Part shown: piece after piece, positions 9,614-35,670 of the stretch
How the letters are laid out: every line of letters begins with the position of its first letter
How positions within the stretch are numbered: the stretch's first letter is position 1
Assembly: GCA_963838485.1 (NCBI GenBank)
Contig: CAWIRY010000115.1
Coordinates: forward strand, 2,323 to 66,322
Length of the DNA stretch: 64,000 nt
Direction: 5' to 3'
Source: an uncultured delta proteobacterium
GTDB lineage: Bacteria; Desulfobacterota; RBG-13-43-22
Notes under the pieces: generated by a model
Databases searched by the model: none
Told to the model about the DNA's origin: nothing
The model's input: only the letters and a program-made list of their open reading frames with translations
Program-made: the position numbers and the translations under genes

Positions 9614-10937
9614 CGAATGAATGCTCTTCCCTTCCTATCTCAGATTCCTCAGCCGGGTGCGGTGCGGTAATCGGTTCGCTCTGGTGGTTCCCGAATTTTT
9701 CTATGGTTTCAAGTACCGTCGAACCTTCTTCGGCCCGATAGAGGTCTAGAAAATGGTCTTTCAGCATATGGAAGGAAATCTCCCCGATTTTAGGTGTAAA
9801 AACAATATCCAGATTGTGCTTGATGACAGCCTTGATGACCTTTACCCCCACATGGATCCGGTCTTTTGTTTTAATAAACTCGTTGTAATAAAAATCCTCG
9901 ATCTCCAGGCCATTGCTGTTGAGCTTGAGAATGATGAAATAAGGGGCCCTCCCGAAGTGTCCAAATACTTTCGAATCCAATCCGTTGATATCTCCTACCG
10001 GGATTATTATTGACAGGTCGGTTTGTTTAGACGGTTCTATGTGCACGAAAACCGATTCAATTCCATCATAAGTTTTTATCACACGCTCTTCCACCTGGTC
10101 TGCCAGCTCATGGGCCTTATACACCGTCAAGGAAGGGCTGGTGGTGATGATACATTCCACCATTTTGAATGGCCCGAACTGCCGTATTTTTACCCCTCCC
10201 ACCCCCTTGACGCCCATCATTTTTAATAGTTGGCCTTGTATCTCTTGCTGCAGCTCTGGATCGAGGTTGGCGTCCATCAAAATCAGGATGGGCATCCAGA
10301 CATTCTTCAGGCCGAGACGGATAATAAGCAGGGCAATCAACATGACCACTGCACCCTCCCCGTAAGGGACCCGGTTATAGGCCAACAAAAGACCAGTCAG
10401 AACAACCAGGGAGATGCCTATATCCATAAAAGATTCAGAGGCATTGGCTAACAGGGCCCTCGACTTAATGGCCTCGCCTGTTTCTTTTTCCTTTTTGGCC
10501 ATGAAATAAGCCGCGGCCAGGGAGAGAACAGTAACCAAAACCGGCAGGATCGGAAAGGTATGCAAGGCCGGGATAAGAAATAGTTTTATAAATCCCTGAT
10601 ATAGATTCTCCAACCCAGCCAGGGTAATCAATATTCCAATGACCAGGGTTACGAACGTCTCGGCTCGGTATAATCCATAAGGAAATTTTTTACTTTTTTT
10701 TCGGGAAGCCAGCCAGAGCCCTAACCAGGAGGCGAAGATGGCCACAACGTCAACGCCGCTGTGGAAGGCGTCGGCGATGAGAATTCTGGAATCGAACAGG
10801 GTGCCTATGATAAATTTGCTAAGGGCCAAAAATAAAATCAAAAGGGATGCGGTCAAGGCAACCTTCTGACCCTGTTTAAGGCTATCGGTATGGTCTTTCG
10901 CGGTTTCCATTTTTTTCGTCGAAACTCGGCTAATCAC
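9594..10937 (-). CDS. Cation diffusion facilitator (CDF) transporter fused to a C-terminal NifX/NafY-like (dinitrogenase FeMo-cofactor-binding family) domain.
   Basis: 447 aa. The N-terminus has 6 TM helices and a CDF cytoplasmic domain. The C-terminus reads ...LSIIIPVGDINGLDSKVFGHFGRAPYFIIL...IVFTPKIGEISFHML..., the same motif as the free NifX-like proteins at 15919 and 16510. The true start may be the internal METAKD at about 10910. Confidence 0.7.
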   Translation of the reverse strand: MISRVSTKKMETAKDHTDSLKQGQKVALTASLLILFLALSKFIIGTLFDSRILIADAFHSGVDVVAIFASWLGLWLASRKKSKKFPYGLYRAETFVTLVIGILITLAGLENLYQGFIKLFLIPALHTFPILPVLVTVLSLAAAYFMAKKEKETGEAIKSRALLANASESFMDIGISLVVLTGLLLAYNRVPYGEGAVVMLIALLIIRLGLKNVWMPILILMDANLDPELQQEIQGQLLKMMGVKGVGGVKIRQFGPFKMVECIITTSPSLTVYKAHELADQVEERVIKTYDGIESVFVHIEPSKQTDLSIIIPVGDINGLDSKVFGHFGRAPYFIILKLNSNGLEIEDFYYNEFIKTKDRIHVGVKVIKAVIKHNLDIVFTPKIGEISFHMLKDHFLDLYRAEEGSTVLETIEKFGNHQSEPITAPHPAEESEIGREEHSFVASPQD

Positions 10938-11151
10938 CCTTTAAAAATTGGCGGGTCATAAAAGATCCGCACTGAGGGCAATTTCTTTGGAAACAAGGGA
11001 CACCTGGTTTATGGGGGACCACAAGACGGCATTGGGGACAGATACAGTTCGTAGAAGGCCCTCCCGGCCCGATGGCCCTGATGCCTCTTCCGCCACCGAA
11101 CCCTCTGCCTTTGCCACGTTGTCGCCCGCCTCCCTTGAGCATAAAGGGCAT
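10930..11151 (-). CDS. Glycine-rich small protein with a C-terminal CxxC...CxxC zinc ribbon (DUF5320-like N-terminus); paralog of 15697..15906.
   Basis: MPFMLKGGGRQRGKGRGFGGGRG...CICPQC...CPQCG. An AGGAGG RBS lies 6 nt upstream of the ATG at 11149-11151. The longer ORF-track N-terminal extension is rejected. Confidence 0.55.
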   Translation of the reverse strand: MPFMLKGGGRQRGKGRGFGGGRGIRAIGPGGPSTNCICPQCRLVVPHKPGVPCFQRNCPQCGSFMTRQFLKGD

Positions 11152-11362
11152 GATGACCTCCTTTTGATTATTCCGGAAAGGTTTTTTCTCCCAAGGCCAT
11201 GGGGCAAAGGGCGGTAATGAAGATTTTGTTTGCCTACAGAGAAAAGGGTTGTTTTTAAGAAATTTTGCAAGGCCCACACCCCACCTAAATTTCTACTTCG
11301 TCGCTTTAATAAAGATGAACCTCGGCGGAAAAGCACGAGGTTCTTTGGTTACGGATTGTTAT

Positions 11363-11699
11363 TCATTCTTTGGTTTTCTGTTTTTCCAATTCCCCCAGCC
11401 GTTGCTCAATAGAGCTGAGGATGTCCCGCAATGAAGAAGCCTCTTCTTTGAGTTGAGAGGTTTCTTCTTCGCCGGTTGGGTTATAAGACGGGAAAAACCC
11501 CCGTCTCCTGGCCCAAGGACCGAGAAAATAACTCCCCAGACCCAAGCCCATACCCCAAAGGCCCCGACCCATGCCCCGGCCTCTGCCGAACCAGCCCGAA
11601 CCGGCTGGGTTTCGGAGAGCACCGGTTCCGCAAGTAACCCCGGCCTCCTCCTGTTCTTGGTCCCATTCCCATGGGACCCGTTCGATCAAAACCTGGCAT
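11363..11699 (-). CDS. DUF5320-type glycine-rich / coiled-coil protein with an apparent +1 frameshift near 11625.
   Basis: Frame A reads MPGFDRTGPMGMGPRTGGGRGY..., the canonical DUF5320 N-terminus. Frame B continues ...CGTGALRNPAGSGWFGRGRGMGRGLWGMGLG...NPTGEEETSQLKEEASSLRDILSSIEQRLGELEKQKTKE. Removing one T from tacttgc restores a single ORF. Confidence 0.5.
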
Positions 11700-11759
11700 A
11701 ATGCATTCCTCCTTCTTTGCCAGAGTTGGTTCCCCGAAGGGAACCAGGCTTTCAAGTCA

Positions 11760-12200
11760 TTACAATTCCCTTTTCCCGTTCGACTTAATATAGCTTTCAA
11801 TAGCCTGACGCAGTGTGTCCCGGGCCAGAATGGCGCAATGCTGGTGATCCACCGGAAGCACTGGCAGACTCTTAGCAATCTCTTTTTCATCAATATCCCA
11901 GGCCTCCTCCAGGTCTTTTCCCTTGGCCAGGGCCGCAGCAATCGAGGCACAAGCCCGGCTGACAGCACATCCATTGACCCGAAAGCGGCTCTCCAAAATT
12001 CTATCTCCCTGGATTCTTAAAGAAATCTCCATAGTGTCTCCGCAAGGTCCGATCACCCTGGCATGACCGTCCGGTTGGTCGATGATCCCTTCGTTATAAG
12101 GGCCCAGCCAGAACTGGACGGCCTGACCGGGAACGGATACTGGTTTGTCCTTATCTTTAGAAACCGGCATTGTCGAAAAATGGGCCAAATCGGATGACAT
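11760..12200 (-). CDS. NifU/IscU-like Fe-S cluster assembly scaffold.
   Basis: 146 aa with GPCGDTMEI, the IscU CGD motif, plus further conserved Cys residues. Confidence 0.75.
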   Translation of the reverse strand: MSSDLAHFSTMPVSKDKDKPVSVPGQAVQFWLGPYNEGIIDQPDGHARVIGPCGDTMEISLRIQGDRILESRFRVNGCAVSRACASIAAALAKGKDLEEAWDIDEKEIAKSLPVLPVDHQHCAILARDTLRQAIESYIKSNGKREL

Positions 12201-12218
12201 CGTTTTTTAATCAACTCC

Positions 12219-13100
12219 CTAATCCTTGAGCAGGTGCTCCTGAATTCTTCCCCAGATTGTTTTAATTTCCGCGCCCAGGCCATTTCGACTCCATTCCAAA
12301 ATGGTTTTCCCCTGGATCATGGCCTCGGTTACCGCCGGATCATAGGGAAGGCTTCCGGCCAGGCCCAGTCCCTTCTCCCGGCAATAGGTTTCAATTTGTC
12401 CGGCCATCTCTTTGTTCAGATCATATTTATTGATCAGAACCATCCCCGGGATTTTGAAATAATTACTCAGACTAAGCACGCGATCCAGGTCATGCAGTCC
12501 CAACAGGGTCGGTTCAGTGACGATCAAAACCCCGTCAGCGCCGGTCAGGGAAGAGATCACCGGACAACCGATGCCCGGAGGGCCATCCACCAGGATCAAA
12601 GGCAGTCCTTTTGCTTCGGCCAGATCCTTTGCTTTACCTCGTATGAGGGCCACCAGCATCCCCGAGTTCTCCTGTCCCACCCCTAACTGGGCATGGACCA
12701 TGGGTCCAAAGCGCGTTTCTGAGACATACCATTCCCCGCAAACCGCCAAAGGAAATTCAATGGCCCCGAAAGAACAAAATTGGACACAGACGCCACAGCC
12801 TTCACAGGAGATCGGGTCAACCTGAAAGTCTTCGCTGATGGCCTCAAAACGGCAGACTTCAAGGCAACGGCCGCAGTCCGTACATAACTCCTGGATAATC
12901 TTCGCCTTGAGGCCCCCCATGAATTCCTCTCGGCTTTTGACTTCAGGCGCGAGCAGCAAGTGTAGATCTGGGGCATCCACATCACAGTCGACCAAAACCT
13001 TGTTAGGGATTAGCGCGGCCAGGGCACCGACCAAACTGGTTTTGCCGGTTCCTCCTTTGCCACTCAAAACACATAATTCTTTTATTTTATTTATAGCCAT
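12219..13100 (-). CDS. MinD/ParA-superfamily P-loop ATPase with an inserted 2x[4Fe-4S] ferredoxin domain.
   Basis: 293 aa with the deviant Walker A SGKGGTGKTS and CTDCGRCLEVC / CEGCGVCVQFC. Confidence 0.8.
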   Translation of the reverse strand: MAINKIKELCVLSGKGGTGKTSLVGALAALIPNKVLVDCDVDAPDLHLLLAPEVKSREEFMGGLKAKIIQELCTDCGRCLEVCRFEAISEDFQVDPISCEGCGVCVQFCSFGAIEFPLAVCGEWYVSETRFGPMVHAQLGVGQENSGMLVALIRGKAKDLAEAKGLPLILVDGPPGIGCPVISSLTGADGVLIVTEPTLLGLHDLDRVLSLSNYFKIPGMVLINKYDLNKEMAGQIETYCREKGLGLAGSLPYDPAVTEAMIQGKTILEWSRNGLGAEIKTIWGRIQEHLLKD

Positions 13101-13112
13101 ACCGTTTTGCCT

Positions 13113-13382
13113 TTATTCAATATAGACGGGTACTGCCTCTTGCTGATTAGAAGCGGTAATGGGGTTTGGGGTTGCATCATGGTTAAAACTCCCGTCCTTT
13201 GACTTCCTTAAGATGTCTTTGTTATGGGGCTCGAAAAGAATTAAATCAAACTCCACTGACTTGAGGAAGGCTATGGCAGTCTCCAATGAAACCGTTGAGT
13301 GTATTAACGATCCTTCCTGAACGATTATATATTGGGCCTGGTAATCAGCATTGATGTGTAAAATTTTAACCGGGTTTCTCAT
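13113..13382 (-). CDS. Hypothetical small protein (degenerate receiver-like?).
   Basis: 89-aa ORF between the two MinD-Fd paralogs; weak REC-like pattern KILHI...FDLILFEP. Confidence 0.3.
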   Translation of the reverse strand: MRNPVKILHINADYQAQYIIVQEGSLIHSTVSLETAIAFLKSVEFDLILFEPHNKDILRKSKDGSFNHDATPNPITASNQQEAVPVYIE

Positions 13383-13419
13383 GGCCCTTCCTTTCTGCTA
13401 ATAAGGACAGCCGTTTCCC

Positions 13420-14283
13420 TTAATGTGTTTCTAAATATTTTTTTATGTGCCTCCTGAGGATTTCATGGAATAACCTCTGAAATTTTTCCTTCCATTCCGG
13501 GTGAATTTCAACGAGTGATTGCCCCAGGGCATAACCCTCGGCTATTTTGCGTTCGAAAGGGATTTCCATCAGCAAAGGAATGTCTTTCGATCGCAAATAT
13601 TTTTGAACCTCCTGGTCTCCCATGTCGGCCCGGTTCAGGATGACCCCAAAAGGAATACCTAAGCTTCCGAGGGCGGCTACGGCCAGCTTCAAATCATAAA
13701 GCCCGAAAGGGGTGGGCTTGGTCACCAGGATCGTATAATCCGACCCTTTAACGGTCTGTATGACCGGGCAGGAGGTGCCCGGCGGGGCATCCAGGATGGC
13801 CAGTACATAATTCTTGATTCGTTTTTTAACCTCCCGGATTAAAGGGGGAGACATGGGCTCCCCAACCCGCAACCGGCCATGGACAAAACGAATGACTCCG
13901 GACCAACCCTCTTCTATCTCTCCCAATTCTTTTTTCCCTGGGTTCAGGGCCTTTGGTTCGCAGACCAGGAAGCACCCTCCGCAGGCATGGCACATTTCCG
14001 GAAAAGTCAGGATCGTTTCCCCGAGCACCAAAATGGCCTTGAACTGGCACAATTGGGAACAGGCCCGGCAGTAGGTGCATTTGGTTTCATCGACCACCGG
14101 GATCTGAGCATAAATCGTCTCTTTATTTTCCCATCGGGGCTTCATGAAGATATGGCCGTTGGGGGCTTCCACATCGCAATCCAGGAGTTGGACCGGTTTC
14201 TGCAAAGAAGTCGCCAGGGCCACGGCCACGCTGGTCTTGCCTGTCCCCCCTTTACCGCTGGCTATACTAATGATCACAGACAT
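13420..14283 (-). CDS. MinD/ParA-superfamily ATPase with ferredoxin insert (paralog of 12219..13100).
   Basis: 287 aa with SGKGGTGKTS and CTYCRACSQLC / CHACGGCFLVC. Confidence 0.8.
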   Translation of the reverse strand: MSVIISIASGKGGTGKTSVAVALATSLQKPVQLLDCDVEAPNGHIFMKPRWENKETIYAQIPVVDETKCTYCRACSQLCQFKAILVLGETILTFPEMCHACGGCFLVCEPKALNPGKKELGEIEEGWSGVIRFVHGRLRVGEPMSPPLIREVKKRIKNYVLAILDAPPGTSCPVIQTVKGSDYTILVTKPTPFGLYDLKLAVAALGSLGIPFGVILNRADMGDQEVQKYLRSKDIPLLMEIPFERKIAEGYALGQSLVEIHPEWKEKFQRLFHEILRRHIKKYLETH

Positions 14284-15557
14284 TGGCTCCGGTAATCAGG
14301 GATTGATTGACATACTGGGCAATCAATTCTTCCGGAGCCAGTTGAGGTGCCCCGGTTAACACCTTGATCCCACTTTCATTAAAGAGACTGACCGCCCTTT
14401 GGCCCATGCCGCCGGCGATGATGAGGTGGACCCCTTTTTCACCCAGCCAGCGGGGCAGGAGACCGGGTTCATGGGGGGGAGGGGTGACCAATACTTTTTG
14501 AATAATGTTTTTCCCTTGTAAATCGATTAAGGCAAACTGTTCGCAATGACCGAAATGATTACAAAGTTTCCCCTCGGCCATGGGAATGGCGATCTTTAAA
14601 CTGTCAAGGGTTGAATTTTTTGAGTCTATCATGGGTAATACCTCCGTTATTAGTTTTTTTATTTCCTTTGGGCTTTGGATTGTCGCCGTTATGATCTTTT
14701 CGATAATGTTATCAAGAGCACCTTTCACCGCAGGTGCCGGGTTATGAAGGAGATAGGCCTGCCCTTGATCCCCTTTTTCCATGAGTTGAATGTCAAAAGG
14801 AATACTTCCTAAGAAAGGGACCTTCATGGAGACGGCCGTGCGTTTCCCCCCGTCTTTTTTAAATATGGCCGATTCCTGACCGCAGTGAGGGCAGATATAG
14901 CCACTCATGTTTTCCACCAATCCCATTATGGGCATATTAACCTGGCGGGCAAAAATTGATGGATTTGCGCACATCGGCCAGGGAGATCTCCTGGGGAGTG
15001 GTTACAATAACCGCCTGGGCTTCCGGGATGGTCTGGGCCACGGTCAGGGGCTCATCCCCCGTTCCCGGTGGGGAATCAATGATCAGGAAATCCAGGTCTC
15101 CCCAGATCACATTGGCAATAAATTGGCGAATAACCCCGATCTTCAGGGGACCGCGCCAGATGGTCGGTGAATCCTTGTCAGGCATCAGCACTTCAATAGA
15201 AATCACCTTTAAGAGGTCATTGACAGGAACCGGATGGATTCCCACATTTTCCTGAATGGGGGCCCGGCCATTAAGCCCGAGCATCCGGGGGATGCTCGGG
15301 CCGTGCAAATCCACATCCATCAGGCCGACCTGATAGCCTTTTAGGGATAGTCCTACGGCTAAATTTACCGCTAAGCTGCTTTTCCCGACTCCGCCTTTGC
15401 CGCTCATGATTAATAATTTATTTTTAATCCGGGACAATGACCTGGCGATGGAGGCATCTTCCGCCCGTTGGGATTCATTTCCCGCTTCCGAACCGTGTCC
15501 ACAACTACTCATAACAGAAACTCCTTTCAATTTTTTTGTTTCAAAATTTTTTTTCAA
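14267..15557 (-). CDS. Mrp/ApbC (NBP35) Fe-S carrier ATPase fused to a C-terminal NifX/NafY-like domain. Apparent 1-nt frameshift in a T5 run at about 14950.
   Basis: ORF 14937..15557 ends ...DVRKSINFCPPG*. ORF 14267..14974 continues ...FARQVNMPIMGLVENMSGYICPHCG..., the Mrp CPHC motif, then ...KIAIPMAEGKLCNHFGHCEQFALIDL...HLIIAGGMGQRAVSLF, which is NifX-like. Deleting one T from aatttttgcc fuses the frames. Confidence 0.7.
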
Positions 15558-15696
15558 AAACCCATTTTTGTTTAAGCCCCGCCAAGGGCGCAGTGAGAGG
15601 TGGCACCTCCATTGGCGGGAATCATCCGGCTTTTGCCGGAAAGATATTTCTTGATCCGTCTTGGCCTTCTCGGCGCATAAGCGACCGGATTAATCT

Positions 15697-15906
15697 CTAT
15701 TCCCGAACCATAGTCGTGCCACATTTGGAACACTTTATGGTATTGCAAGGCACTCCCCGGGAATGGGAACTCTTATTCCCGCATTTAGGGCAGAGACAAT
15801 TACCGCCGGCTCCCATGCCGGTACCTCCACCCATTCCTCCTCGTCCCGATCCAAGACCTCCACCTGGGCCTTTTCCTGCCGGACCTGTGCCATCTCTTCT
15901 GGGCAT
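15697..15906 (-). CDS. Glycine-rich DUF5320-like protein with a C-terminal zinc ribbon.
   Basis: MPRRDGTGPAGKGPGGGLGSGRGG...CLCPKCG...CSKCG. Confidence 0.55.
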   Translation of the reverse strand: MPRRDGTGPAGKGPGGGLGSGRGGMGGGTGMGAGGNCLCPKCGNKSSHSRGVPCNTIKCSKCGTTMVRE

Positions 15907-15918
15907 AATTCCTCCTTT

Positions 15919-16281
15919 TTAACTCCAGTGCCCTTCTACATTATGGGCCTGGGCAAAGTTAACTTTTCCTTGTTTATATTGATTTATAGCTTCTTGCACA
16001 AGACCGGAAACCCCTACGGCCACCTGAACCCCTGCTGCCTTTAAAACCTGGTAGGCCTTGGGGCCGCAATTACCGGTCAGAACAACCTTGGCCCCATGCT
16101 CCACAACCGTCTGGGCCGCCTGAATCCCAGCTCCCTGGGGCAATTGCAGATTCTGCCGATTTTCAATGACTTCTAAGGACAAGGTTTCCGGATCCACGAT
16201 AAGGAAATAGCCTGCCCGGCCGAAACGGGGATCGATTGCGCTATCCAAACTTTTCCCTTTAGAACTAATGGCCAGTTTCAT
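15919..16281 (-). CDS. NifX/NafY-like (dinitrogenase FeMo-cofactor family) domain protein.
   Basis: MKLAISSKGKSLDSAIDPRFGRAGYFLIVD...VVLTGNCGPKAYQVLKAAGVQV. A GGAAGGAG RBS precedes the ATG at 16279-16281. The ORF-track 5' extension overlaps the ferredoxin gene in another frame and is rejected. Confidence 0.7.
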   Translation of the reverse strand: MKLAISSKGKSLDSAIDPRFGRAGYFLIVDPETLSLEVIENRQNLQLPQGAGIQAAQTVVEHGAKVVLTGNCGPKAYQVLKAAGVQVAVGVSGLVQEAINQYKQGKVNFAQAHNVEGHWS

Positions 16282-16333
16282 TTTTTTTAAACTCCTTCCT
16301 GATTGATGACTTAACAATTCAAGCACCGCAAAC

Positions 16334-16519
16334 CTACCCTTCGGTAACGGTAATAGCCCCGGTTTCACAGACCTCGAGACAACTTTCGCAACCGAGACAT
16401 TCGTCTCCATTGACCACCACAGCCTTATTATCTTGTAACTCATAGACCCCCACTGGACAGACATCGACGCAGTTTCCATCACCGACACACTTTTCAGTAT
16501 CCACCGTAACTACAAACAT
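16334..16519 (-). CDS. 2x[4Fe-4S] ferredoxin.
   Basis: 61 aa with CVGDGNCVDVCP and CLGCESCLEVC. Confidence 0.8.
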   Translation of the reverse strand: MFVVTVDTEKCVGDGNCVDVCPVGVYELQDNKAVVVNGDECLGCESCLEVCETGAITVTEG

Positions 16520-21213: not shown

Positions 21214-21504
21214 TTAAGCCGGGCCGATAACCCAGTTCTGGATCAAAGAGAGCGTCAGTACCCGGTAATTTTTAAAGACTTTCCCCAGTTCTTCATACTT
21301 GACCTTGGCCAGGGGCGGATACATCATCAGGATCAGGCCGATGGCGATGGGGAGATTGGTCGTATCATATTGGAAGAGATTCCAGAACTGAACTACCTTG
21401 GGATAGAGATAGCCGGACCCTACACCCACCAGCATGGCCAAAAAGATCCACAGGGTCAGAAAACGGTCCAGAAAGGAAAGTTTTTTAGGAGTCGTTTCGG
21501 GCAT
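21214..21504 (-). pseudogene. 5'-terminal fragment (96 codons) of an ACR3 arsenite efflux gene; truncated duplicate of 34474..35565.
   Basis: [25 protein letters not shown]... is about 95% identical to the N-terminus of the full-length copy. Homology to the second copy ends at about 21222. Confidence 0.75.
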
Positions 21505-21610
21505 AGTGTTTCCCTCCTTTTCAGGTTTTAAGAAGGGCCTCGATTTGTTCCTTTATTAATGATTCCGGCGGAATCTTTGAGAATGGACCATTCTCGGAGA
21601 CATAGAACCG

Positions 21611-21844
21611 TCACCCCAGGCCGGTTTGGGAAAGCTTCCTGGCCGACGGTTCCAAATCGAAGCCATTGATTTTAATGGTCGGAGAGCCGAAAAATTGATT
21701 TGTCCTGGCTTCTTCCTCGGTATTTATTAAAATTGGTTCAATCAGGATGTTGAGCTGTTTTTCATCTAACACTTTTTGAACCGCCTCCAGCGCCTTGTCT
21801 TTGGCCGGTCAACCCCGGGTATAAAGGACCTGAATATTATGCAT
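21611..21844 (-). CDS. Thioredoxin_3 (redox-active disulfide protein 2)-like 77-aa protein with an in-frame TGA in place of the first CxxC Cys (candidate single-Sec protein).
   Basis: MHNIQVLYTRG-[TGA 21809..21811]-PAKDKALEAVQKVLDEKQLNILIEPILINTEEEARTNQFFGSPTIKINGFDLEPSARKLSQTGLG*. It aligns in length and motif with the Cys paralog at 42163..42396 (VLGPGCPKCG...FGVISTPAVVVDG). Confidence 0.5.
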
Positions 21845-21896
21845 AATCTCCCCGTACTAAAAAAGTTTTCCATCTCCCGGATGGCAAGCATCAGGA

Positions 21897-22169
21897 TCAG
21901 CCATCGGCATCAGTGCCGGGTTGGATCTCGAGGGGAGGAAATGGGGTTGAGGATTGAGGGTTTGTAGCCTTCTTTTCTGGAGTGGGCTTAGGGGCAGGGT
22001 TTGGCTTGTCCGAATTCGAAGTCTGCTTATTGTCCTCAGAACATTCCTGCTGTTGCGGATTGGCTGAACCGGGGGGAAGGTTTTTTTTCTCCTCGGCAAA
22101 AGAAAAGGACCCGATTAGAATAATCAGTAAAACCAAAAACAGTATTGTCAATATGTTTCGACCTGTCAT
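21897..22169 (-). CDS. Secreted Pro/Gln-rich low-complexity protein (signal peptide).
   Basis: MTGRNILTILFLVLLIILIGSFSFA-EEKKNLPPGSANPQQQECSEDNK... Confidence 0.45.
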   Translation of the reverse strand: MTGRNILTILFLVLLIILIGSFSFAEEKKNLPPGSANPQQQECSEDNKQTSNSDKPNPAPKPTPEKKATNPQSSTPFPPLEIQPGTDADG

Positions 22170-22879
22170 AGCCTATCTTACCTTTATTCCTTTCCAATGT
22201 TTGTTAAATAAAGGTACTATACCCGGCAGCCTCCAATATTTCAATCAATCTTTGTCTCACCGCAATTCGGAGGGCAAAGAGGGCGATAACGCAAGATGGG
22301 TATTTCGTCTCCATAAAAAGAGAGGGGAGTGAAGAGTTGGGATCGCTGACTCAAGATCAATGTTACCGAGGTTTAGGGGATAACCTGCCATATTGTGATT
22401 GAGTTTGGAAGATTTTTTAAAGCTTTGTCTCAATGGCAGCTCTCAACAGAAAGAGGTTCAGGGTTTTGAACTGTGCCGTTAGCCTATTTATGCTTGACAA
22501 TCCTGCTTGTTATACCATTAAAATTACAAAGAATTTTATGGGGAATGCCCCGACTGAAACCCCATAAGATATTGTGATCCTTCCTCAGCGGCTCCGTTCT
22601 TCATGCGTCAATCCAAAATTGCTTTCAATGCTTTGAATATTTTCATGTTCTTCCTGCGAGCAACTTCGGATTGACGCTTATTCGAAATGTGGGAGAATTG
22701 GTTGGAATATCTCGGCCTTGACCTCTGGATGGCTTTGTTTTTTTTGCTTCGGTCCTCTTTATCTTTGAGCTGGCTCTGAGTTTATCACATTGTCCATTTT
22801 TCGGGGACCACTTTACCTCCGAGCACACCGACTGTTCGATGGAACCATTGACCTCAAGGTTGCCAGGATTGGTGTTCAA

Positions 22880-23512
22880 TCACTTTACAAATGACCGCAT
22901 GCAGGCAATAGCTGGCTGGAAATTTTTAGAAGGAAATGACTCAAATTCATAATAACCTTCTCCCTGGCAGGTCAGGCATGGTGTCCCCTGTTTGACCGGA
23001 TAGGCTTCATAGCAGACCGGGCAAATTTGGATCTCTCCTTTTTTATTTTTTTCGTAATACCGAGTGATTTGAACCGGTGCCGAATTTAACATCCTTCTGC
23101 CGGCTGTCAAAATATCTTGAACCAATACAGATAAGGGAAGCTCTTTTTTATCCACCAGACGCATATACCAATTATAAACCTTAGGAAAGGCGGAAAGCCT
23201 TCTGAGATCCATCCAGACCCTATATCCCTGAAGACTTTTTTTATTGTAAAGACTCAAAGCAAATTTATCCCAATCCAGGATCTTCATCCAGCCGTTGCCA
23301 CAGGTGCAGGGGGTGAAGAGTTGGACCGCATCGGGCAGGCAGTGAATCGTTTCTACTATGGCATCGGCCTCCAGTTCACTACCCAATAATTCCTGTGCCC
23401 AATCGACCATAAAACCGCCAATGACCACACCCGGGGCGGCCCAACCATGAAATTTTTCAATTGTTTTAATAAAATCTTCTAATGTCCTTCCACAAATGGT
23501 TTCTTTTTCCAT
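22880..23512 (-). CDS. FmdE/FwdE-family protein with a C-terminal zinc ribbon.
   Basis: 210 aa, ...HGWAAPGVVIGGFMV...CPVCYE...CLTCQGEG. Confidence 0.65.
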   Translation of the reverse strand: MEKETICGRTLEDFIKTIEKFHGWAAPGVVIGGFMVDWAQELLGSELEADAIVETIHCLPDAVQLFTPCTCGNGWMKILDWDKFALSLYNKKSLQGYRVWMDLRRLSAFPKVYNWYMRLVDKKELPLSVLVQDILTAGRRMLNSAPVQITRYYEKNKKGEIQICPVCYEAYPVKQGTPCLTCQGEGYYEFESFPSKNFQPAIACMRSFVK

Positions 23513-23775: not shown

Positions 23776-26700
23776 TTAAACAGGAACTACGTTCACCCGG
23801 GTATTGGAAAAAGAGGCACTGCCGCCGATTGGGTCGGTCAAGCAGACATCCTTTAACAACGGGTCCACGGCCATGATATGGTTAACACAGATCCCCGTAG
23901 CCCGACGGCGGTCCCCAGAAATTTTGTGGCCATCGACCACCACATCATTGGACCCATAGGCCCAGTGACCGTAGTGCCAGGACACGGCCAGGGTCCCCGG
24001 ACGAATCCCTTCAACGATATTGACCCGTGCGATCATAGGCACCAGCCGGTTTTCTCCGTCTTTCAACTCTAACTTCCCGCTGGGATTGTCCACCGAAACC
24101 AACCGCACTCGTTGGTCCTGTTTAATGCCGATTTTTAAGGCATCTTCCCGATGAATCAGGATCTTGTTCTCCGGCCTCAAGGCGATGTTGCTCCAGTAGT
24201 TGGAGATGGTCCGGGAGTGACCGCCGAAGGCCTCTTTATAGGTGATGATCTTAAACGGATATTCTTGACCCCGCTTTAGGGGTTTACCGGCAGAATCGAA
24301 TTCCCCGCCAATAAATGGGACACCACTGAAATATGTCCCGCTGAGGCTGTTTTTTTGGGAAGCCACTTCCTCCACGAAGAGGTGAAACATGCTATTCAGG
24401 GCACTTTTCATTTTATCGCCCTCATAGGCTTGGCTGAAATCTGCAAACCGCCCCCCGCGGTTGAGGACATAAACGACTTTCCGCCATTCATTCTCTGACC
24501 GCAGGGCTTGCTTCCAACGCTTTTCGTTAAAAACAGAAAGGGGCAGATGTCGTCTGGCCTTTTGAAAGAGGGCCATTTCGGCGGCATCGGCTTCAGGGAC
24601 ATCCTCGCCGCCCTTATCTCCAAAGGCAATATTGGCCACTTCTTTAAGATACCAGTCCTCCGGCCGGGTGAATGGTATCCCCTTACCAAAGGCGTCCTGG
24701 CCGAATCCGGAGAGCTTCATCCGGGTTCCCACGGCAATTAAAAATGTTTCCATGCAGATAGGCATCCGTTCACCGTTCACCTCCACTTCTTCGGTGAAGG
24801 GTATGGCCACGGGTTGTCGTACCTTGCCTACTTTGGTGGGCACATCCGGCGTATCGTGTGGCATTCCCCACCGTTCCAGATAGGTCAGATCCGGGACAAT
24901 GTAGTCTGCATACATGGAGGTCTCGCCGATGACAATATCACTGGCAATGAAGAGCGGTACCCGGGCCGGATCCTTGAGCATGTCAATGATATGTTGGGTC
25001 CCGCCGGGTATAGAAAGGGCCGGAGTGCCCATGTGAAGGAAAAGGATTTTCCCGGCATAGGGATATCCGGCTGTGAAGGAGGGGATGACCTCCTGGTAAA
25101 CATTGCCGGTAAAGGGATACCAGGGCCGCTTGGCCGGGTAGCCATGTTCTTTGAAAAGGGTGAAATCTTCATACCGGCTCTTCTCACGAGTAATCCTAGG
25201 CCCAAAGGCTTTAAGAGGTCCGGAATGCATATTCTCCAATGGATAGATACTGTCTGGTTTATCTCCAACCTCATGCCAAGAGCCGCCCCCCTTACTGAGG
25301 CCCCCTTTATAATCGGCATTGCCGATGAGGACATTTAAAGTAATGATCAGACAACCGTTATAATATCCGTCTGTCTGCTGTACCGGTCCCCGATACATCT
25401 CCACCACAGACCTCTTTCCGTGAGAGGTGAACTCCCTGGCCACTTCGATGATGGTCATGATATCCACTCCGCTTTCTTCGGCATACTCCTTTAACGTGCG
25501 GGCCATGGCCTGTTCGGTCAGGAGTTGAAAGGCGCTCTTCACGGACAGGCCTTTCACCTGGGTCTTGACCAGGAGATCTCCTTCTATCGGTTTATTTTCA
25601 TCTTCCGGATCTACGGCAATCAGCCGGCCTGCGCGGGAGACTACCCTCTGTTTGGCTGTGCCGATGCCCGCTTCATCGGCCTTCAACAAGGCTATGGGGT
25701 GTCCTTCTACGATCTTTACCAAGTGGCTGGCGTTGGTCCAGGTCGGTTCATCGTCGGCCTTGGCAGCCCCCTTGTTGGCGTTTTCCAGGTACCGTTGGTC
25801 ATAACGGTTATTTTCCAGTATCCATCGAATCATGGCCATAGCCAAGGCCCCGTGGCCATTGGGTTGGACTGGAAGCCACCAGTTGGCCTTACCGGCATCG
25901 TTGGAGAGCCGTGCATCCACCACCGCGGTCTTCAGACCCCGGTGAAGTTTTCCGGTGGTGACCTTCTCGGCCATGGTCACCAGGCTGAAGTTGGCTGTAA
26001 AAGCCCCGGTTCCCCAGAAAATAACAAACTCGGCGTTAGCCAGGTCGGGTTTCATGTGGTTAGTTTTATGTCCGGTCATCAGGTCATAGGCGATGTGGTG
26101 AGACTGCTCACAAATAGTGGTATGTTCATAATGATTCTTCGATCCAAGGGATAATTCGGTAAACCATTTCATTAATTGGGCACGGCCTGGTTGAATGCGG
26201 CCAGCCAGGAAGACGAAGCCGTTATTTTTCGGTCCGAGATCCGGATGTTCAGGATCAATAAGCTGATCCAGATGTTCTCGATACTTTTTCTTAAATTCAA
26301 CAACACTCAATTCCCCCTTGCCACACTTCTGGGCATCTTCAGCCATTTTTTTTGATAACTCGACATCCCTCATGGCCACTACCTCGTCAAATCCCGGGTA
26401 TGGGCGGCTGTCTCCTGCCTCGGCGAACAACTTGCCTCCGCGGACGACTTCTTCTATGAATTGGTTAAAAGGGATGCTCTGCCACTTATTGGACCCTCGT
26501 TCGCCGGCTCGTTTAAGTACCTTTCGAATCCGGTAGGGATCGTAATAGGTTTGGATACCGGCCTGCCCCTTGGCGCACAGCTTCCCGTCAATAGTCGCCG
26601 CATCCTGGGGGCGGGTCTTATAAGGAATATGGGGGAGAAAAGTCTGAGGGCTGTAAGGACTCCCCGTCAACTTGGCCAGGGTTCCGTCCCAGATTTTGGC

Positions 26701-26952
26701 CTTGATCTGGCAGGATACATGGCATTGGAGGCAGGTGGTATAAATCTGGTTTTGGGGCTGGGCCAGCTCGTATGCGCCCTGGCTGTCTGCCTCTTTGGTC
26801 TCGGTCAGGCCTCCAAAAATTTTGCTTGCCTGAGCGGCCAGGATGGCACATCCCCCCACAAAGGCTGTTGACTGGATCAATTGACGACGAGTAATTCCTT
26901 TTTGCTCGTTTTTCTTGTTTTCTACAGATCGTTGGTCATGTTTGACGCGCAT
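23776..26952 (-). CDS. ttrA: Molybdopterin (bis-MGD) oxidoreductase catalytic subunit, TtrA-like, with a Tat signal.
   Basis: 1058 aa with TRRQLIQSTAFVGGCAILAA (Tat) and CLQCHVSCQ (an N-terminal [4Fe-4S] motif). The size and the B-C-A gene order match tetrathionate reductase. Confidence 0.65.
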   Translation of the reverse strand: MRVKHDQRSVENKKNEQKGITRRQLIQSTAFVGGCAILAAQASKIFGGLTETKEADSQGAYELAQPQNQIYTTCLQCHVSCQIKAKIWDGTLAKLTGSPYSPQTFLPHIPYKTRPQDAATIDGKLCAKGQAGIQTYYDPYRIRKVLKRAGERGSNKWQSIPFNQFIEEVVRGGKLFAEAGDSRPYPGFDEVVAMRDVELSKKMAEDAQKCGKGELSVVEFKKKYREHLDQLIDPEHPDLGPKNNGFVFLAGRIQPGRAQLMKWFTELSLGSKNHYEHTTICEQSHHIAYDLMTGHKTNHMKPDLANAEFVIFWGTGAFTANFSLVTMAEKVTTGKLHRGLKTAVVDARLSNDAGKANWWLPVQPNGHGALAMAMIRWILENNRYDQRYLENANKGAAKADDEPTWTNASHLVKIVEGHPIALLKADEAGIGTAKQRVVSRAGRLIAVDPEDENKPIEGDLLVKTQVKGLSVKSAFQLLTEQAMARTLKEYAEESGVDIMTIIEVAREFTSHGKRSVVEMYRGPVQQTDGYYNGCLIITLNVLIGNADYKGGLSKGGGSWHEVGDKPDSIYPLENMHSGPLKAFGPRITREKSRYEDFTLFKEHGYPAKRPWYPFTGNVYQEVIPSFTAGYPYAGKILFLHMGTPALSIPGGTQHIIDMLKDPARVPLFIASDIVIGETSMYADYIVPDLTYLERWGMPHDTPDVPTKVGKVRQPVAIPFTEEVEVNGERMPICMETFLIAVGTRMKLSGFGQDAFGKGIPFTRPEDWYLKEVANIAFGDKGGEDVPEADAAEMALFQKARRHLPLSVFNEKRWKQALRSENEWRKVVYVLNRGGRFADFSQAYEGDKMKSALNSMFHLFVEEVASQKNSLSGTYFSGVPFIGGEFDSAGKPLKRGQEYPFKIITYKEAFGGHSRTISNYWSNIALRPENKILIHREDALKIGIKQDQRVRLVSVDNPSGKLELKDGENRLVPMIARVNIVEGIRPGTLAVSWHYGHWAYGSNDVVVDGHKISGDRRRATGICVNHIMAVDPLLKDVCLTDPIGGSASFSNTRVNVVPV

Positions 26953-26955
26953 GGG

Positions 26956-28107
26956 TTAATTTCCTCCCTCATTGACAGATTTTGTTGAAAGGATTGGCAG
27001 AAACCGGATGCCCAGATAAAAGAGGGCGATAAATAGGGCCACAGCGAAGGCAAAGACCGACCATTCATGGATCGATGGGAAGTATACGAACTTGAGCCGG
27101 TTATCCGAATAGGCCTCCTGAAGTCCCTTCATGGCCGGGGTTACTTGGCCAGGGATCACCTGGTTCAGGCGAACCGCGAAGTGGGCCACGGCAATCAGCA
27201 GGCCAGCCCATCCGGCATTCAGACGGTTTGCTGGCTTCCGTATCAGCATCACCAATGGAATGATGATTCCGGCCAGAAGGTGAACGATCCAAAAGACGTA
27301 CCAATAGGAACCGAAGAGGATGGACCAGAGCACCGTATAGGTTCTATCCCTTCCATACCACATGGTTACCGAAAATTCCGACCACTCCAGAATGATTACC
27401 AGGAAGAGCAGGCCTACGACTGACCGACTCAAGAGGGATAGGGTCTCCCGGTCCTTGGAAGAATCCGTGAAACAGAAAAAGGCTGCGACAGCTAAGATCA
27501 AGGCAAGGCCGGAAGACAAACCATCGCCAATAGAGAGGACCGGGCCGAGGGAGGTGTGCCAATAGGGACTGGATATCAGGGTGGCGAATTCAGCACCGTT
27601 GCCGCCGGAGAAGATGATGGCCAGGCCCATACCGATCCAGCCGAGGCGGCGGTAGGTCTTGGTTGCTAAGGGATAGGGTTTTATTTCCATGGCCAGGATT
27701 ATGGCGATATAGGCCAAGTAGCCCATCGAAATCCAACTGGAGATGGTCAACAGGGAGAAAAAGTTGGGCCGAAAAAAGACCTCCTGCAGTCGCCACATAT
27801 GCCCCAGGTCGAAGGAGATGATCGTAAGCCCAACCACCAGGTTGACCAGGGACAGCCACAGGGCGGGACGTACCAGGCCACGGAATCGCTCAATTTGAAA
27901 GGCATAACAAACCCAGGCAAAAAAGGAAACCCCCTCTGCCAGGCCGATAAAATAGATTTTTGCGGAAACCCATAATCCCCAGGGGACGTAGCTGCCGTAA
28001 TCGGCGAGCAGATGACCATATATCATCCGCTGCATTACACCGAAAAGGCCCCAGATCATCAGGGCGACCCAGGCAATACCGATGACTTTTTTTTGCGTTT
28101 TTGTCAT
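26956..28107 (-). CDS. ttrC: NrfD/PsrC-family membrane anchor (TtrC-like).
   Basis: 383 aa, polytopic, lying between the Fe-S and catalytic subunit genes. Confidence 0.65.
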   Translation of the reverse strand: MTKTQKKVIGIAWVALMIWGLFGVMQRMIYGHLLADYGSYVPWGLWVSAKIYFIGLAEGVSFFAWVCYAFQIERFRGLVRPALWLSLVNLVVGLTIISFDLGHMWRLQEVFFRPNFFSLLTISSWISMGYLAYIAIILAMEIKPYPLATKTYRRLGWIGMGLAIIFSGGNGAEFATLISSPYWHTSLGPVLSIGDGLSSGLALILAVAAFFCFTDSSKDRETLSLLSRSVVGLLFLVIILEWSEFSVTMWYGRDRTYTVLWSILFGSYWYVFWIVHLLAGIIIPLVMLIRKPANRLNAGWAGLLIAVAHFAVRLNQVIPGQVTPAMKGLQEAYSDNRLKFVYFPSIHEWSVFAFAVALFIALFYLGIRFLPILSTKSVNEGGN

Positions 28108-28119
28108 AAAATTTCTCCT

Positions 28120-29094
28120 TTAAACCAGGTAATAAACAGAAGGGTTCGTTCCTAATTCCTCTTTTAGTCGGGTGACCCGTGAAGAACCTATAAGCTCATG
28201 GGCCAGGCTGTGAAGGTCATGGTAATCCCCGAAATAGGTGGCCCCACCCACACAGGTCGTAACGCAGGCAGGGAGCATGCCCTCACGGAGCCGATGGAGA
28301 CAGAAATGGCACTTCCGGGCGTTTCCGATGGGGGAGCGTTCCCGGTGGGGATCCCGCCGCCACTTTTTGCTGTACTCGAAGTTAGGCCGGGTTTCATAAT
28401 TCATAATCGCCGGGGTAGAGCCCCCATAAAATTCTCCGAAATCCGCTGTGCGTGCGTTGTACGGACAGGCCGCCACGCAGTTGCGGCAACCGATACAAAT
28501 TTCATAATCTATGACCACGACCCCATCTTCTCTCTTCCAGGTCGCCCTGACCGGGCAGACCGGCACACAGGGCGGTTTGTCACATTGCATGCAAGGTCTG
28601 GGGGTGAAGATCCTTCGTACATCCGGGAACTGCCCTACTTCCTGTTCGGGCACGACCCGGTAAACCACGCCCGGGGGTAGATTATTCTCCGTACAGCAGG
28701 ATACGGTGCAGGCCTTACAGCCGATACATTTCTGCTGATCAATCACCATCACCCATTTGCGTTCCCGGACGGGCTTTTTCATGGCTTTCAAAAGTTCTGC
28801 CCGCATCCGTTCCAGGGTGCTGCCCTCGGCAAAGCTTTCCGGATGGTTCAGCGGTTTGGCCTCAGGGGCGGTTTCCAGGGCCAAGGCAGACTTGGCTGTC
28901 AATGACCCCAAAATCCCCATACCACTGATAGCCGCCAGTGAACGGCCAATAAAATTCCGGCGTTCCAAGTCAGCCCCCGTCGCCTCCGCAGTAGATTTTG
29001 TCTGGCGCTGCCTGGAATCTTGGTCCCCTTTCCCCTGGGCGGATCCTTTCTGGGGGCTGGGATTGGATCGATTGGATGAAAACTTTTCGGTCAT
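28120..29094 (-). CDS. ttrB: Four-cluster [4Fe-4S] electron-transfer subunit (TtrB-like) with a Tat signal.
   Basis: 324 aa with [16 protein letters not shown] and multiple CxxCxxCxxxCP motifs. Confidence 0.65.
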
Positions 29095-30846: not shown

Positions 30847-31993
30847 GATCCAAAAATCCCCTGATCATTTCACTTAATTTTTCATTGGGAAGCAGGAAGG
30901 CGTCATGTCCCCATTGGGCTTCGATTTCACAGAAGCTGACATCCTTACCATTTTTTTTTAAGGCCCGTGCAATGGCCTTGGATTGGTAAGTGGGGTACAA
31001 CCAATCAGAGGTAAAGGAGACCACCAGAAATTTGGTCCGAGTTTTAGAAAAGGACTGTACCGCAGATCCGTTGCCGTGTTGGAGACCCAGATCAAAATAA
31101 TCGGCGGCCTTGGTGATATATAAGAAAGAGTTGGCATCGAACCGTTCGACGAATTTTGTGCCCTGATACCTTAAATAGCTTTCCACTTGAAAATCAGCCT
31201 CAAAGTTATAAGAGAAATCATTCTTATCCTGGAGTCGGCGACCGAATTTCTGGCGCATGGATTCATCGGAAAGGTAGGTGATATGCCCGATCATACGGGC
31301 CACTGCCAGGCCTAAGGAAGGGCCAGTCCCCGAGTAGTAATCGCCGCCGTTCCAGTTGGGATCTGCCATGATGGCCTGCCGGGCCACCTCATTGAAGGCA
31401 ATGGCCAGGGCCGAATGTTTAGTGGTCGTCGCCAGGGGGATGGCGGAAATAATCATCTCGGGAAAGAGAACGGACCATTCCAACACCTGCATCCCACCGA
31501 TGGATCCCCCGATAACCGAGAGGATCTTTTTAATACCCAGATGATCCAGCAATTGCCTTTGGGCCAAGACCATGTCCCCAATGGTTACCACCGGAAAGTT
31601 CAAGCCATAAGGTTTATCACTCTTGGGGTTAATAGAAGAAGGCCCGGTTGATCCCAGACAGCTTCCCAGGATATTGGAACAGATGACAAAATATTTATCG
31701 GTATCGATTCCCTTTCCCGGCCCGACCATAATATCCCACCAGCCCGGCTTGTTGTCCTCCTGGGAATAATAGCCGGCCACGTGGGAATCCCCGGATAAGG
31801 CATGTAATATGAGGACAGTATTGTCCTTCTCCCTGTTTAATGTCCCATAGGTTTCATAAGCCAGGGTCAACGGTCCCAGGCGGGTCCCGCATTCCAGAAC
31901 CATCTCATCGGGAGGTTCGGCGAAGGTGAAATATTTTTTTTCCACCACTCCCACGGAGATCCCTTTGGGGTCATTTTCAATATATTCGCTCAA
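30827..31993 (-). CDS. metX: Homoserine O-acetyltransferase. Start tentatively the TTG at 31993, overlapping the metY stop as TTGA.
   Basis: ...VLILHALSGDSHVAGY...GGSIGGMQVLEW... (alpha/beta hydrolase, GxSxG). Confidence 0.75.
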   Translation of the reverse strand: MSEYIENDPKGISVGVVEKKYFTFAEPPDEMVLECGTRLGPLTLAYETYGTLNREKDNTVLILHALSGDSHVAGYYSQEDNKPGWWDIMVGPGKGIDTDKYFVICSNILGSCLGSTGPSSINPKSDKPYGLNFPVVTIGDMVLAQRQLLDHLGIKKILSVIGGSIGGMQVLEWSVLFPEMIISAIPLATTTKHSALAIAFNEVARQAIMADPNWNGGDYYSGTGPSLGLAVARMIGHITYLSDESMRQKFGRRLQDKNDFSYNFEADFQVESYLRYQGTKFVERFDANSFLYITKAADYFDLGLQHGNGSAVQSFSKTRTKFLVVSFTSDWLYPTYQSKAIARALKKNGKDVSFCEIEAQWGHDAFLLPNEKLSEMIRGFLDRVYREL

Positions 31994-33254
31994 TGGGGGA
32001 GTCCCTCTAAAGCCTGTCCCAGGTCCTCGCAAAGATCCTCGGCATCCTCAATCCCTACGGAAAGGCGGATCATATCGGGTCTAATCCCCAAGCTCTGCCG
32101 GGTTTCTTCATCAAAAGAAATATACTGGGAGGAGTATGGGTGAATCACCAGGGTCTTGCAGTCCCCTAAATTGGCCAGGTGATAGATTAAACGAAGCCGT
32201 TTGATAAATTTAAAACAGGCCCCCTGGTCCTTGAGGCCGAAGGTAATCAAACCGCCAAATCCTTTCCCCTTAAACTGGGTCTCCGCCGTAAGGTGGGAGG
32301 GATGGTCTTTGAATCCGGGGTAATTGACCCAAACAACCTCGGGTCTTCCTTTTAAGTATTCGGCGATCAAGGCGGTATTTTTTAAAGTCTCTTTCATCCG
32401 AAGCGACAGGGTGTCCAAACCGAGCATGGTCAAAAAGGAATGAAAGGGGGACTGGGTAGTTCCGAAATTGATATGGTGTTCCCTCCATACCTTATCCAGG
32501 AAGGCCAAAGGCCCCTTGCGGTCGATAAAGGGTTTAAAGTCCGGGAAGCGGTCTTCGGACCAGGGGAAGGTGCCCTTATCGATTACCACACCCCCGACGG
32601 CTGCCCCGTGACCACTTAGATATTTGGTAGTGGAATGAATAACTATATCGGCACCGAACTCAAAAGGACGGCACAAGGTAGGGCGAGGTCAGGGTGTTGT
32701 CCACGACCAGGGGGATCCCCTGACGATGGGCAACATCGGAAATTTTTTTGAGGTTCGGGATATCCAGCTTGGGGTTGCCGATAGTTTCCAGGTAGACAAA
32801 CCGTGTCTGGTTATTGATGGCTTTGGCAATGGCCTCAATGTCAGTGGACTCCACCAGCCGAGCCTGGATACCATATTTCTTAAACACCTTATTAAAAAGG
32901 AGGTACGTGGACATGAAGAGGGAATTCCCGGAAACAAATTCATTCCCCGTCCTGAGCAACGCCATACAGGCATTGGTAACGGCCGGCCATGCCTGATGAC
33001 ATGACGATGGCGCCCTGCCCTCCTTCTAATAGGGTTAGTTTCTCTTCCAAAGTGCGGTTGGTGGGATTGGTTAACCTCATGTAGATATGATCGGCGGTCT
33101 GCCCGGCAAAAGTCTGACTTAAACTTTCCGCAGTCGGATGAAGGTGTGAAGCGGTCTGGAAGATCGGGGACAGGGTCGACCCCTCCCAGGATTCCGGCGA
33201 TTGTCCGGCGTGGATGACTTGGGTGTCAAAATGATATGGGGTTTCGCTTACCAT
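31990..33254 (-). CDS. metY: O-acetylhomoserine sulfhydrylase (PLP-dependent, MetY-like), split over three frames by two 1-nt indels at about 32960 and 32670.
   Basis: Segments ...QVIHAGQSPE...SSGMAG / ...LLRTGNEFVSGNSLF...IPLVVDNTLTSPYL / ...GADIVIHSTTKYLSGHG... Ordered together they give a complete MetY. Confidence 0.7.
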
Positions 33255-35565: not shown

Positions 35566-35670
35566 TTGTCCTCCTTCCTTGTCAGGTGTTAAGAAGAGCC
35601 TTGATTTGTTCTCTGATTAATGATTTCGGTGGAATTTTTGAGAATGAACCATTCTCGGAAATGTAATAGC

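Follow-up and report, generated by a model that had tools for sequence, protein, structure and literature searches.

Does an open reading frame (ORF) that is interrupted by an in-frame TGA and stands directly upstream of an arsenite efflux gene encode a selenoprotein, and if so, where does that protein end and what would it do? The question is raised by the minus-strand ORF at 21611..21844 in a 64,000-nucleotide (nt) stretch of contig CAWIRY010000115.1 from an uncultured delta proteobacterium; we refer to this whole stretch as the window. An earlier note on the locus had described a 77-residue protein of the Thioredoxin_3 type with a single selenocysteine (Sec), present in two diverged copies. 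Our analysis indicates that the product of each copy is most likely a cytoplasmic selenoprotein of 107 residues with a thioredoxin fold, a member of the DF / DUF2703-like family; in it, both conserved Cys of the family would be replaced by Sec (U12 and U78). The two genes, their UGAs and the adjacent transporter gene are:

21521..21844, minus strand: DF-family gene copy 1, predicted selenoprotein, 107 codons plus stop, starting MHNIQVLYTRG-U-PAKD
21809..21811, minus strand: in-frame UGA at codon 12, the first of copy 1; predicted Sec, in the column of the family's invariant first Cys
21611..21613, minus strand: in-frame UGA at codon 78, the second of copy 1; predicted Sec in place of the second Cys of the family, in the C-R-x-Y motif
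21521..21523, minus strand: true stop of copy 1
35582..35905, minus strand: DF gene copy 2, 107 codons, intact, with both TGAs, followed by a full-length acr3
35870..35872 (first) and 35672..35674 (second), minus strand: in-frame UGAs of copy 2
34474..35565, minus strand: acr3 arsenite efflux transporter gene behind copy 2 (TIGR00832, 461.7 bits, cutoff 282.8)

Minus-strand translation of 21611..21844 gives MHNIQVLYTRG*PAKDKALEAVQ...FFGSPTIKINGFDLEPSARKLSQTGLG*, with TGA at codon 12, and copy 2 reads MHNIQVLYTQG*LAKNKALEAIQ... on the same strand. The first TGA is conserved in both copies although its flanks have diverged (R/Q, P/L, D/N), as had been claimed, and it was kept in every relative found elsewhere. 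The length of 77 residues did not hold up, since 21611..21613 is a second conserved in-frame TGA and not a stop. In both copies and in five related contigs the 87 nt past it stay in frame, with silent and conservative changes, and the ORF thereby extends by 29 codons to the true stop; L002 terminates one codon later, with TAG. A codon-by-codon comparison of 12 sequences (the two window copies and 10 relatives drawn from several independent metagenome projects, with protein identity as low as 62%) showed TGA at codons 12 and 78 in 12/12, and TGA or TAA at codon 108. L002, L004 and L006 (the same stretch as L001) agree with this pattern, and L011, which is N-masked at the first TGA site, shows the second TGA only. 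Upstream of the first TGA, codons 1-11 are preceded by a Shine-Dalgarno sequence and an ATG and are kept at the protein level through synonymous changes (CAT/CAC, AAT/AAC, CAG/CAA, GGT/GGC), and the 29 codons 3' of the second TGA are conserved across the compared sequences. The homologous loci thus hold more than an 11-codon ORF, as sequence is conserved on both sides of the TGA, and protein-level selection on the reading frame is seen on either side of the two UGAs as well as between them.

The coding sequences of the two copies are 89.8% identical, with 33 substitutions and no indels. An extra C at about 35816, reported before as breaking the frame of copy 2, does not exist: 35672..35905 spans the same 234 nt in frame, and the only 1-nt indel of the repeat that carries the gene lies 5' of the ATG, between it and the Shine-Dalgarno region. 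The stop of copy 2 is 16 nt 5' of the acr3 ATG, within the acr3 ribosome-binding region. Gene callers give a 53-residue ORF in every relative found, from an internal GTG (codon 25); a word-indexed protein search returned four such fragments only, and it was exhaustive search and DNA scans that revealed the family.

With both TGAs read as Cys, copy 1 scored 100.5 bits and copy 2 98.3 bits against NF049942, "DF family (seleno)protein" (cutoff 70 bits), each over profile positions 1-95 of 96 and with the match beginning at residue 4. The 77-residue form reached 77.8 bits over positions 1-73. DUF2703 (PF10865, cutoff 23.6) was passed marginally by the 107-residue read-through (25.6 bits), and the 77-residue form fell below it (22.0 bits). 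Membership of Thioredoxin_3 (PF13192), as proposed in the earlier note, is contradicted by scores of 17.5, 14.5 and 16.5 bits against a cutoff of 24.8, by the lack of a match to TIGR00412 (cutoff 62 bits) and by the lack of a CxxC motif. Nor is the protein at 42163..42396 its Cys paralog: BLASTP against the read-through protein gave E = 0.2, the C-terminal motif differs (FGVISTPAVVVDGQ), and the equal length of 77 residues is a coincidence. What stands is the core of the proposal, a thioredoxin-fold selenoprotein gene in which TGA replaces an active-site Cys, as the NF049942 cutoff is passed and the column of the TGA holds an invariant Cys.

When the 65 residues that separate the TGAs were used as query, an exhaustive HMMER search returned 147 cluster representatives. 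Full-length members are about 100-115 residues long, with the consensus ...LYFxGCPxx...F(L)GSPT(I/V)x(I/V)NGxD(I/L)EP...G(L)xCRxY...G(x)P...(M/L)I..A. In an alignment of 44 family sequences C12 is invariant and C78 is present in at least 90%, and the TGAs align with both. The family has no CxxC, its first Cys being paired with the distal Cys of a G-x-C-R-x-Y motif. Because the fourth position of the first motif is Y, H, K and so on in the family, the Lys of U-P-A-K is normal, and it does not replace a second Cys of CxxC as had been thought; nor is the protein a single-Sec one, since the distal Cys is TGA as well. Many database entries stop one residue before the second Cys column, which is the expected output of gene callers if that codon is TGA, and some are incomplete at both ends.

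DNA scans of genomes and metagenomes, in which we denote the residues of the two columns in order, showed the C..C form in the majority of loci. The U..C form was found in L015, with Cys twins in L012 and L013, the C..U form in L036, L044, L047, L063, L140 and L158, and the U..U form in L001-L010, L087-L089 and L086. The last of these, a relative of the published DF protein, reads MHIRVISLAN*GAATE...EQFALA*RRYGVSSTPPEKMIEAAITEASK*, with TGA at both positions. NCBI labels the Cys members either "DF family (seleno)protein" or "DUF2703 domain-containing protein", and the NCBI-named proteins retrieved in the protein search were Cys forms only. An AlphaFold model of the Cys homolog P0012 (pLDDT 95) has a thioredoxin fold with an extra C-terminal beta-hairpin that carries the second Cys region. 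We regard it as highly probable that both UGAs of the present gene are translated, presumably as Sec. Separately, many C..U-type members (P0007, P0019, P0021, P0024, P0028, P0116 and others) have an N-terminal signal- or lipoprotein-like sequence and a GC(x)ATPPT motif, which suggests an exported sub-family within the DF selenoprotein family.

Sec decoding by the organism is indicated by another gene in the window:

3093..3698, minus strand: Sec-peroxiredoxin gene (FTFV-U-PTE), TGA at 3555..3557, AhpC-TSA match of 134 bits running end to end across the TGA

This TGA stands at what we take to be the expected position of the peroxidatic Cys, and gene callers would split the gene there. It is followed at +13..32 (about 3526..3545) by the hairpin UUGGcGGC-GGUC-GCCuCCAA, with GGUC at +21..24. 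The TxxU peroxiredoxin is a selenoprotein type in a 2026 review (PMC13188914), and the gene at 3093..3698 fits this type. Its presence implies that the organism decodes Sec, and as TGA terminates 11 of the 44 Pfam-supported ORFs of the window, the genetic code is standard. Among the other TGA read-throughs of the window only the peroxiredoxin was convincing; FmdE with 78 further codons (22643..23512) showed nothing recognisable. In L001, a 166-residue Thioredoxin_3 ORF followed in frame by a 74-residue ORF is not a selenoprotein gene, as the intervening stop is TAA.

The search for a selenocysteine insertion sequence (SECIS), suggested in the earlier note, gave a divided answer, with a hairpin after the second UGA and only a weak candidate after the first:

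21579..21595, minus strand: hairpin 3' of the second UGA of copy 1 (candidate SECIS 2), GAGAAUG-GUC-CAUUCUC
35640..35656, minus strand: hairpin 3' of the second UGA of copy 2, GAGAAUG-GUU-CAUUCUC
21782..21792, minus strand: weak, tentative SECIS 1 candidate of copy 1, CGCU-GGA-GGCG, at +20..30 from the first UGA
35843..35853, minus strand: site in copy 2 that corresponds to SECIS 1, where a G to A change weakens the candidate (CACUGGAGGCG)

The SECIS 2 hairpin (6-7 bp) begins 15 nt after the second UGA, with GGUC at +25..28, about the same distance as that of GGUC in the E. coli fdhF SECIS, and it was found in 12/12 U..U genes. In a more distant clade it reads GAGGAUG-GUC-GAUUCUC, where the A to G change (N85D) retains a G.U pair, and strong GC hairpins stand at the corresponding place in the C..U relatives. 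After the first UGA there is only the element CGCU-GGA-RGCG of 3-4 bp, in which the GAA/GAG wobble of codon 20 retains a U-A or U.G pair. Silent-site variation among the 12 U..U genes was 0.021 (1/48) in codons 84-89 and 0.089 (8/90) in codons 13-21, compared with 0.23-0.37 (about 0.29) elsewhere; the Fisher p values, 3e-6 for codons 84-89 and ~1e-5 for codons 13-21, are descriptive only, the sequences being related. This pattern indicates RNA-level constraint after both UGAs, with SECIS 2 a well supported candidate and SECIS 1 a plausible one. Rfam gave nothing relevant for the window at gathering thresholds or for the locus at E up to 10.

The position of the gene directly upstream of acr3 was confirmed and extends to the relatives: acr3 directly follows in every U..U locus of the acr3-linked clade with enough downstream sequence. 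The acr3 products of these loci are 91-96% identical to that of the window, except for the fragment in L088 (52% over 54 residues), and the identity of the DF proteins falls to 62% across the U..U clade, below that of acr3. Among Cys members, three on long contigs are arranged merR-DF-merT(P) with a 4-nt overlap onto merT, and merA lies near one of them. A MerR-like neighbour was found in 64 of the 160 fetched loci and a MerT-like neighbour in about 50, and one representative (P0144) is a MerR-DF fusion. DF/DUF2703 is apparently an unnamed, common component of mer operons. Cys-type DF/DUF2703 genes between merR and merT(-HMA), with the 4-nt overlap onto merT, were seen in L167, L168 and L170 (around 3500..5000 of the 8-kb loci) and in L171 (2193..3643), and among the titled genome loci the mer-linked Cys types are mostly from Acidobacteriota/Terriglobia and Bryobacterales.

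Taken together, we propose that SelB would decode both UGAs as Sec, the second by way of the GGUC hairpin and the first by way of the weaker element in the strongly conserved 30 nt 3' of the UGA. The two selenols would be close to each other in the active site of the thioredoxin fold, as a pair of ligands for soft metal(loid)s, and the protein would capture cytosolic As(III) and pass it to Acr3. The DF gene would be co-transcribed with acr3 and is probably translationally coupled to it, and the Cys-type relatives would likewise capture Hg(II) and deliver it to MerT. We lean, if only slightly, towards this explanation in its entirety (a two-Sec protein, decoding by SelB, capture of As(III) and its hand-off to Acr3). 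The arsenite hand-off, which is read from the genomic context, is a possibility that we would place somewhat short of even. Binding and hand-off are favoured over a disulfide reductase because the protein is small and cytosolic, has a thioredoxin fold in which two soft ligands are conserved, and is coupled, probably at translation, to a transporter of a thiophilic metal(loid). A wider reading is more tentative: the acr3-linked clade may be a bis-selenolate (U12...U78) arsenite chaperone obligatorily coupled to Acr3, the published DF family may be a two-site Cys/Sec family whose description misses the second Sec and the last 25-30 residues, and the Cys members may be an unnamed mer component working with MerT.

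Several observations weigh against the proposed explanation. No selA, selB, selC or selD was found in the 64-kb window, and ARAGORN found no tRNA there, tRNA-Sec included. There is no convincing hairpin 3' of the first UGA, where the RNAfold energy is not better than that of shuffles, and the G to A change in copy 2 breaks the best SECIS 1 candidate. The shuffle test is, however, uninformative rather than negative, since the Sec-peroxiredoxin is also non-significant (z = +0.3). The silent-site statistics count related sequences as independent. Three soft ligands are the usual preference of As(III), against two conserved ones here, and the acr3 link is limited to the U..U clade and L047 and is not family-wide.

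A competing possibility is that the same two-Sec protein acts as a redox enzyme, in which a U12/U78 diselenide/selenol cycle would reduce, for example, the thioredoxin-coupled ArsC (38380..38817), oxidised Acr3 or other thiols. A thioredoxin fold whose canonical nucleophile position is occupied by the first Sec agrees with this, as do the low-molecular-weight-phosphatase-type ArsC, the thioredoxins and CcdA of the island, and a thioredoxin-like role was proposed for the DUF2703 protein in a Rhodococcus paper (PMC6514093). The protein has no CxxC motif, however, and a diselenide is, from general selenium chemistry, very hard to re-reduce. Moreover, the gene is tightly coupled to transporters (acr3, merT) and not to reductases, and ArsC is 3 kb off on the other strand. 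We consider the redox enzyme unlikely, yet well above negligible. Far less probable is that only the second UGA is decoded and that translation starts at the internal GTG (codon 25), leaving the first 24 codons outside the protein, even though the 53-residue ORF is annotated in every relative and a strong SECIS is lacking 3' of the first UGA. This model would leave unexplained the protein-level conservation of codons 1-11 with synonymous changes behind a Shine-Dalgarno sequence and ATG, as well as a family profile that begins at residue 4; the fold and site would be incomplete without beta-strand 1 and the first Cys/Sec, and it is at this first position that the published DF protein has its Sec. 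A single-Sec protein of 77 residues ending at 21611..21613 is more improbable again and already refuted by the sequences. TGA does serve as an ordinary stop in the window, but this one is never TAA or TAG whereas the downstream stop varies, the 29 downstream codons are kept in frame, and reading through adds 23 bits to the profile score; besides, the position aligns with the conserved Cys of C-R-x-Y and is followed by the GGUC hairpin. Decaying pseudogenes, sequencing errors or a non-standard code with TGA as a sense codon, which the frameshifted genes of the window (a PLP enzyme in three pieces, HslU in two) might bring to mind, are refuted at the sequence level and have next to no probability, as the same two TGAs recur in independent assemblies from different projects with protein selection visible on all sides, TGA ends 11/44 ordinary genes, and homologs carry Cys, not Trp or Gly, at the TGA columns.

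The claim that this family contains selenoproteins is not new, as the DF selenoprotein family was named in 2025-26. "Hypothetical protein DF" was predicted by deep-Sep in 2025 from Desulfosediminicola flagellatus, at that time with no TGA-containing homologs and no recognised domain (PMC12013277), and a 2026 review places DF under NF049942, with one Sec and no motif (PMC13188914). The present protein belongs to the same family and its first Sec shares the column of the published one; it differs in having two TGAs, on both conserved Cys, and in extending 29 residues further. The published sequence, ...SLVNUNAATEIKE...TIEQFGIS, ends one residue before the second Cys/Sec column (PMC12013277). From this end point, together with L086 and its two TGAs, it is very likely that the published model breaks off at a second Sec codon. 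NCBI curators may already be aware of the full length, since the NF049942 profile covers the C-terminal part. An acr3 link of the DF family is not described in the literature searched.

Arsenic genes also surround a DUF2703 gene in Rhodococcus aetherivorans BCP1, in the cluster arsR-acr3-arsC2-arsC3-DUF2703-arsO (PMC6514093). That protein is a Cys form described with CXXC, and its gene, located downstream of arsC, does not share a transcript with it (PMC6514093), whereas the present gene has no CxxC, encodes two predicted Sec and lies directly upstream of acr3. DUF2703 was further found fused to ArsD and MOSC domains by Pawlowski et al. (PMC3091736). ArsD, a small thioredoxin-fold As(III) metallochaperone without redox CxxC chemistry that is encoded beside arsenite efflux genes, binds As(III) by soft ligands and delivers it to the pump, provides our working analogy for the DF protein, and the hand-off role may also be likened to that of the N-terminal domain of MerA. 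ArsD has a Cys12-Cys13-Cys18 triad and serves the ArsA ATPase, while the DF protein has two distant predicted Sec and Acr3 as its proposed partner; it gave no ArsD match (PF06953 / NF033727) at E up to 1 and has no vicinal Cys. MTH895/ArsE Thioredoxin_3 proteins (TIGR00412) are, like the DF protein, small members of the same superfamily fold in metal(loid) resistance islands. The one encoded at 42163..42396 (102.6 bits for Thioredoxin_3, 108 bits for TIGR00412) has a classical CPKC in its 77 residues, where the DF protein has U-P-A-K. Double-Sec metal-binding selenoproteins of selenoprotein-rich anaerobes (MbdU with CU x2; the heavy-metal-binding UxxU protein NF041115; PMC13188914) resemble it in having two Sec as presumed soft-metal ligands, but their folds and motifs are different and their Sec are adjacent or 2 apart instead of 66 residues apart.

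The 1.04-kb duplication described in the earlier note is indeed present as a direct repeat with 91.8% identity between the copies:

21221..22259: repeat copy 1, 1,039 bp, comprising the ORF of a small secreted protein, the DF gene and a 5' part of acr3
35282..36321: repeat copy 2, 1,040 bp, 14,061-14,062 bp from copy 1
21214..21504, minus strand: truncated acr3 remnant of ~95 codons behind DF copy 1, inside which the repeat ends
21897..22169 and 35959..36231, minus strand: 90-residue ORF just 5' of each DF copy, in the repeat

DF copy 1 is an intact extra copy left by this duplication, which also carried the truncated acr3. The related contig L001/L006 has one repeat copy only, and the duplication seems to be specific to the present genome. 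The copies flank a segment of ~13 kb with the TtrBCA-like operon, FmdE and methionine-biosynthesis genes, and the direct repeat could mediate deletion of this segment. The 90-residue ORF has a signal-peptide-like N-terminus and a Pro/Lys-rich tail but no family match; counterparts in L001, L003 and L004 are 83-87% identical to it, and L008 gave a weak partial match.

Copy 2 is followed by acr3, a PF04060 Fe-S protein, a helix-turn-helix protein, methionine-biosynthesis genes, the TtrB/NrfD/TtrA-like molybdoenzyme, FmdE and copy 1. On its other side lie the thioredoxin-type ArsC, an MFS transporter, CcdA, two thioredoxins, the CPKC Thioredoxin_3 protein, a CDF transporter, ArsR and an ArsP/SaoE-like permease. 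Further features of the window are:

23776..29094, minus strand: operon in ttrBCA order, with a Fer4_11 protein (324 residues), an NrfD-type membrane subunit (383 residues) and a molybdopterin enzyme (1058 residues)
9594..16488, minus strand: cluster of Nitro_FeMo-Co (dinitrogenase cofactor-binding-like) domain proteins and MinD/ParA-type Fe-S ATPases
41606..42370, minus strand: ORF of 254 residues overlapping the Thioredoxin_3 gene in another frame, no Pfam match
49373..50790, plus strand: insertion sequence element with HTH_Tnp_1 and rve transposase ORFs, right of the resistance island
58334..59239, plus strand: tyrosine recombinase, right of the resistance island
31990..33254, minus strand: Cys/Met-metabolism pyridoxal phosphate (PLP) enzyme, in three ORFs
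59713..61150, plus strand: HslU, in two ORFs

The molybdopterin enzyme matched TtrA best, with 505 bits (the equivalog cutoff, 1750, is far above this), and ArrA with 88 bits; the operon adjoins the DF-acr3 pair in the relatives L001 and L002 too. Within the cluster at 9594..16488, a CDF cation-efflux protein is fused to a Nitro_FeMo-Co domain (9594..10937). The ORF at 41606..42370 is probably spurious. The broken PLP enzyme and HslU genes suggest indel errors of long-read assembly or real pseudogenes, and claims about small indels in this window therefore need care.

Relative to the literature searched, the second Sec and the true C-terminus, the two-Sec clade fixed upstream of acr3 and the merR-DF-merT context of the Cys forms appear to be new. 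For annotation, this would replace the called 53-residue fragment by a protein of 100-110 residues with a two-residue Cys/Sec site. The literature searched contained no cytosolic chaperone dedicated to Acr3-type pumps, and we know of none. For DUF2703 and DF, families without an assigned function, the coupling to a transporter (acr3 in the present case, merT for many of the Cys forms) offers a hypothesis that can be tested. If the proposed role is true, the protein would be the first example of a selenoprotein that forms part of an arsenite efflux system. With two Sec 66 positions apart in 107 residues, one of them with a weak SECIS candidate, it would also offer a compact system in which to test Sec decoding and As-Se chemistry.

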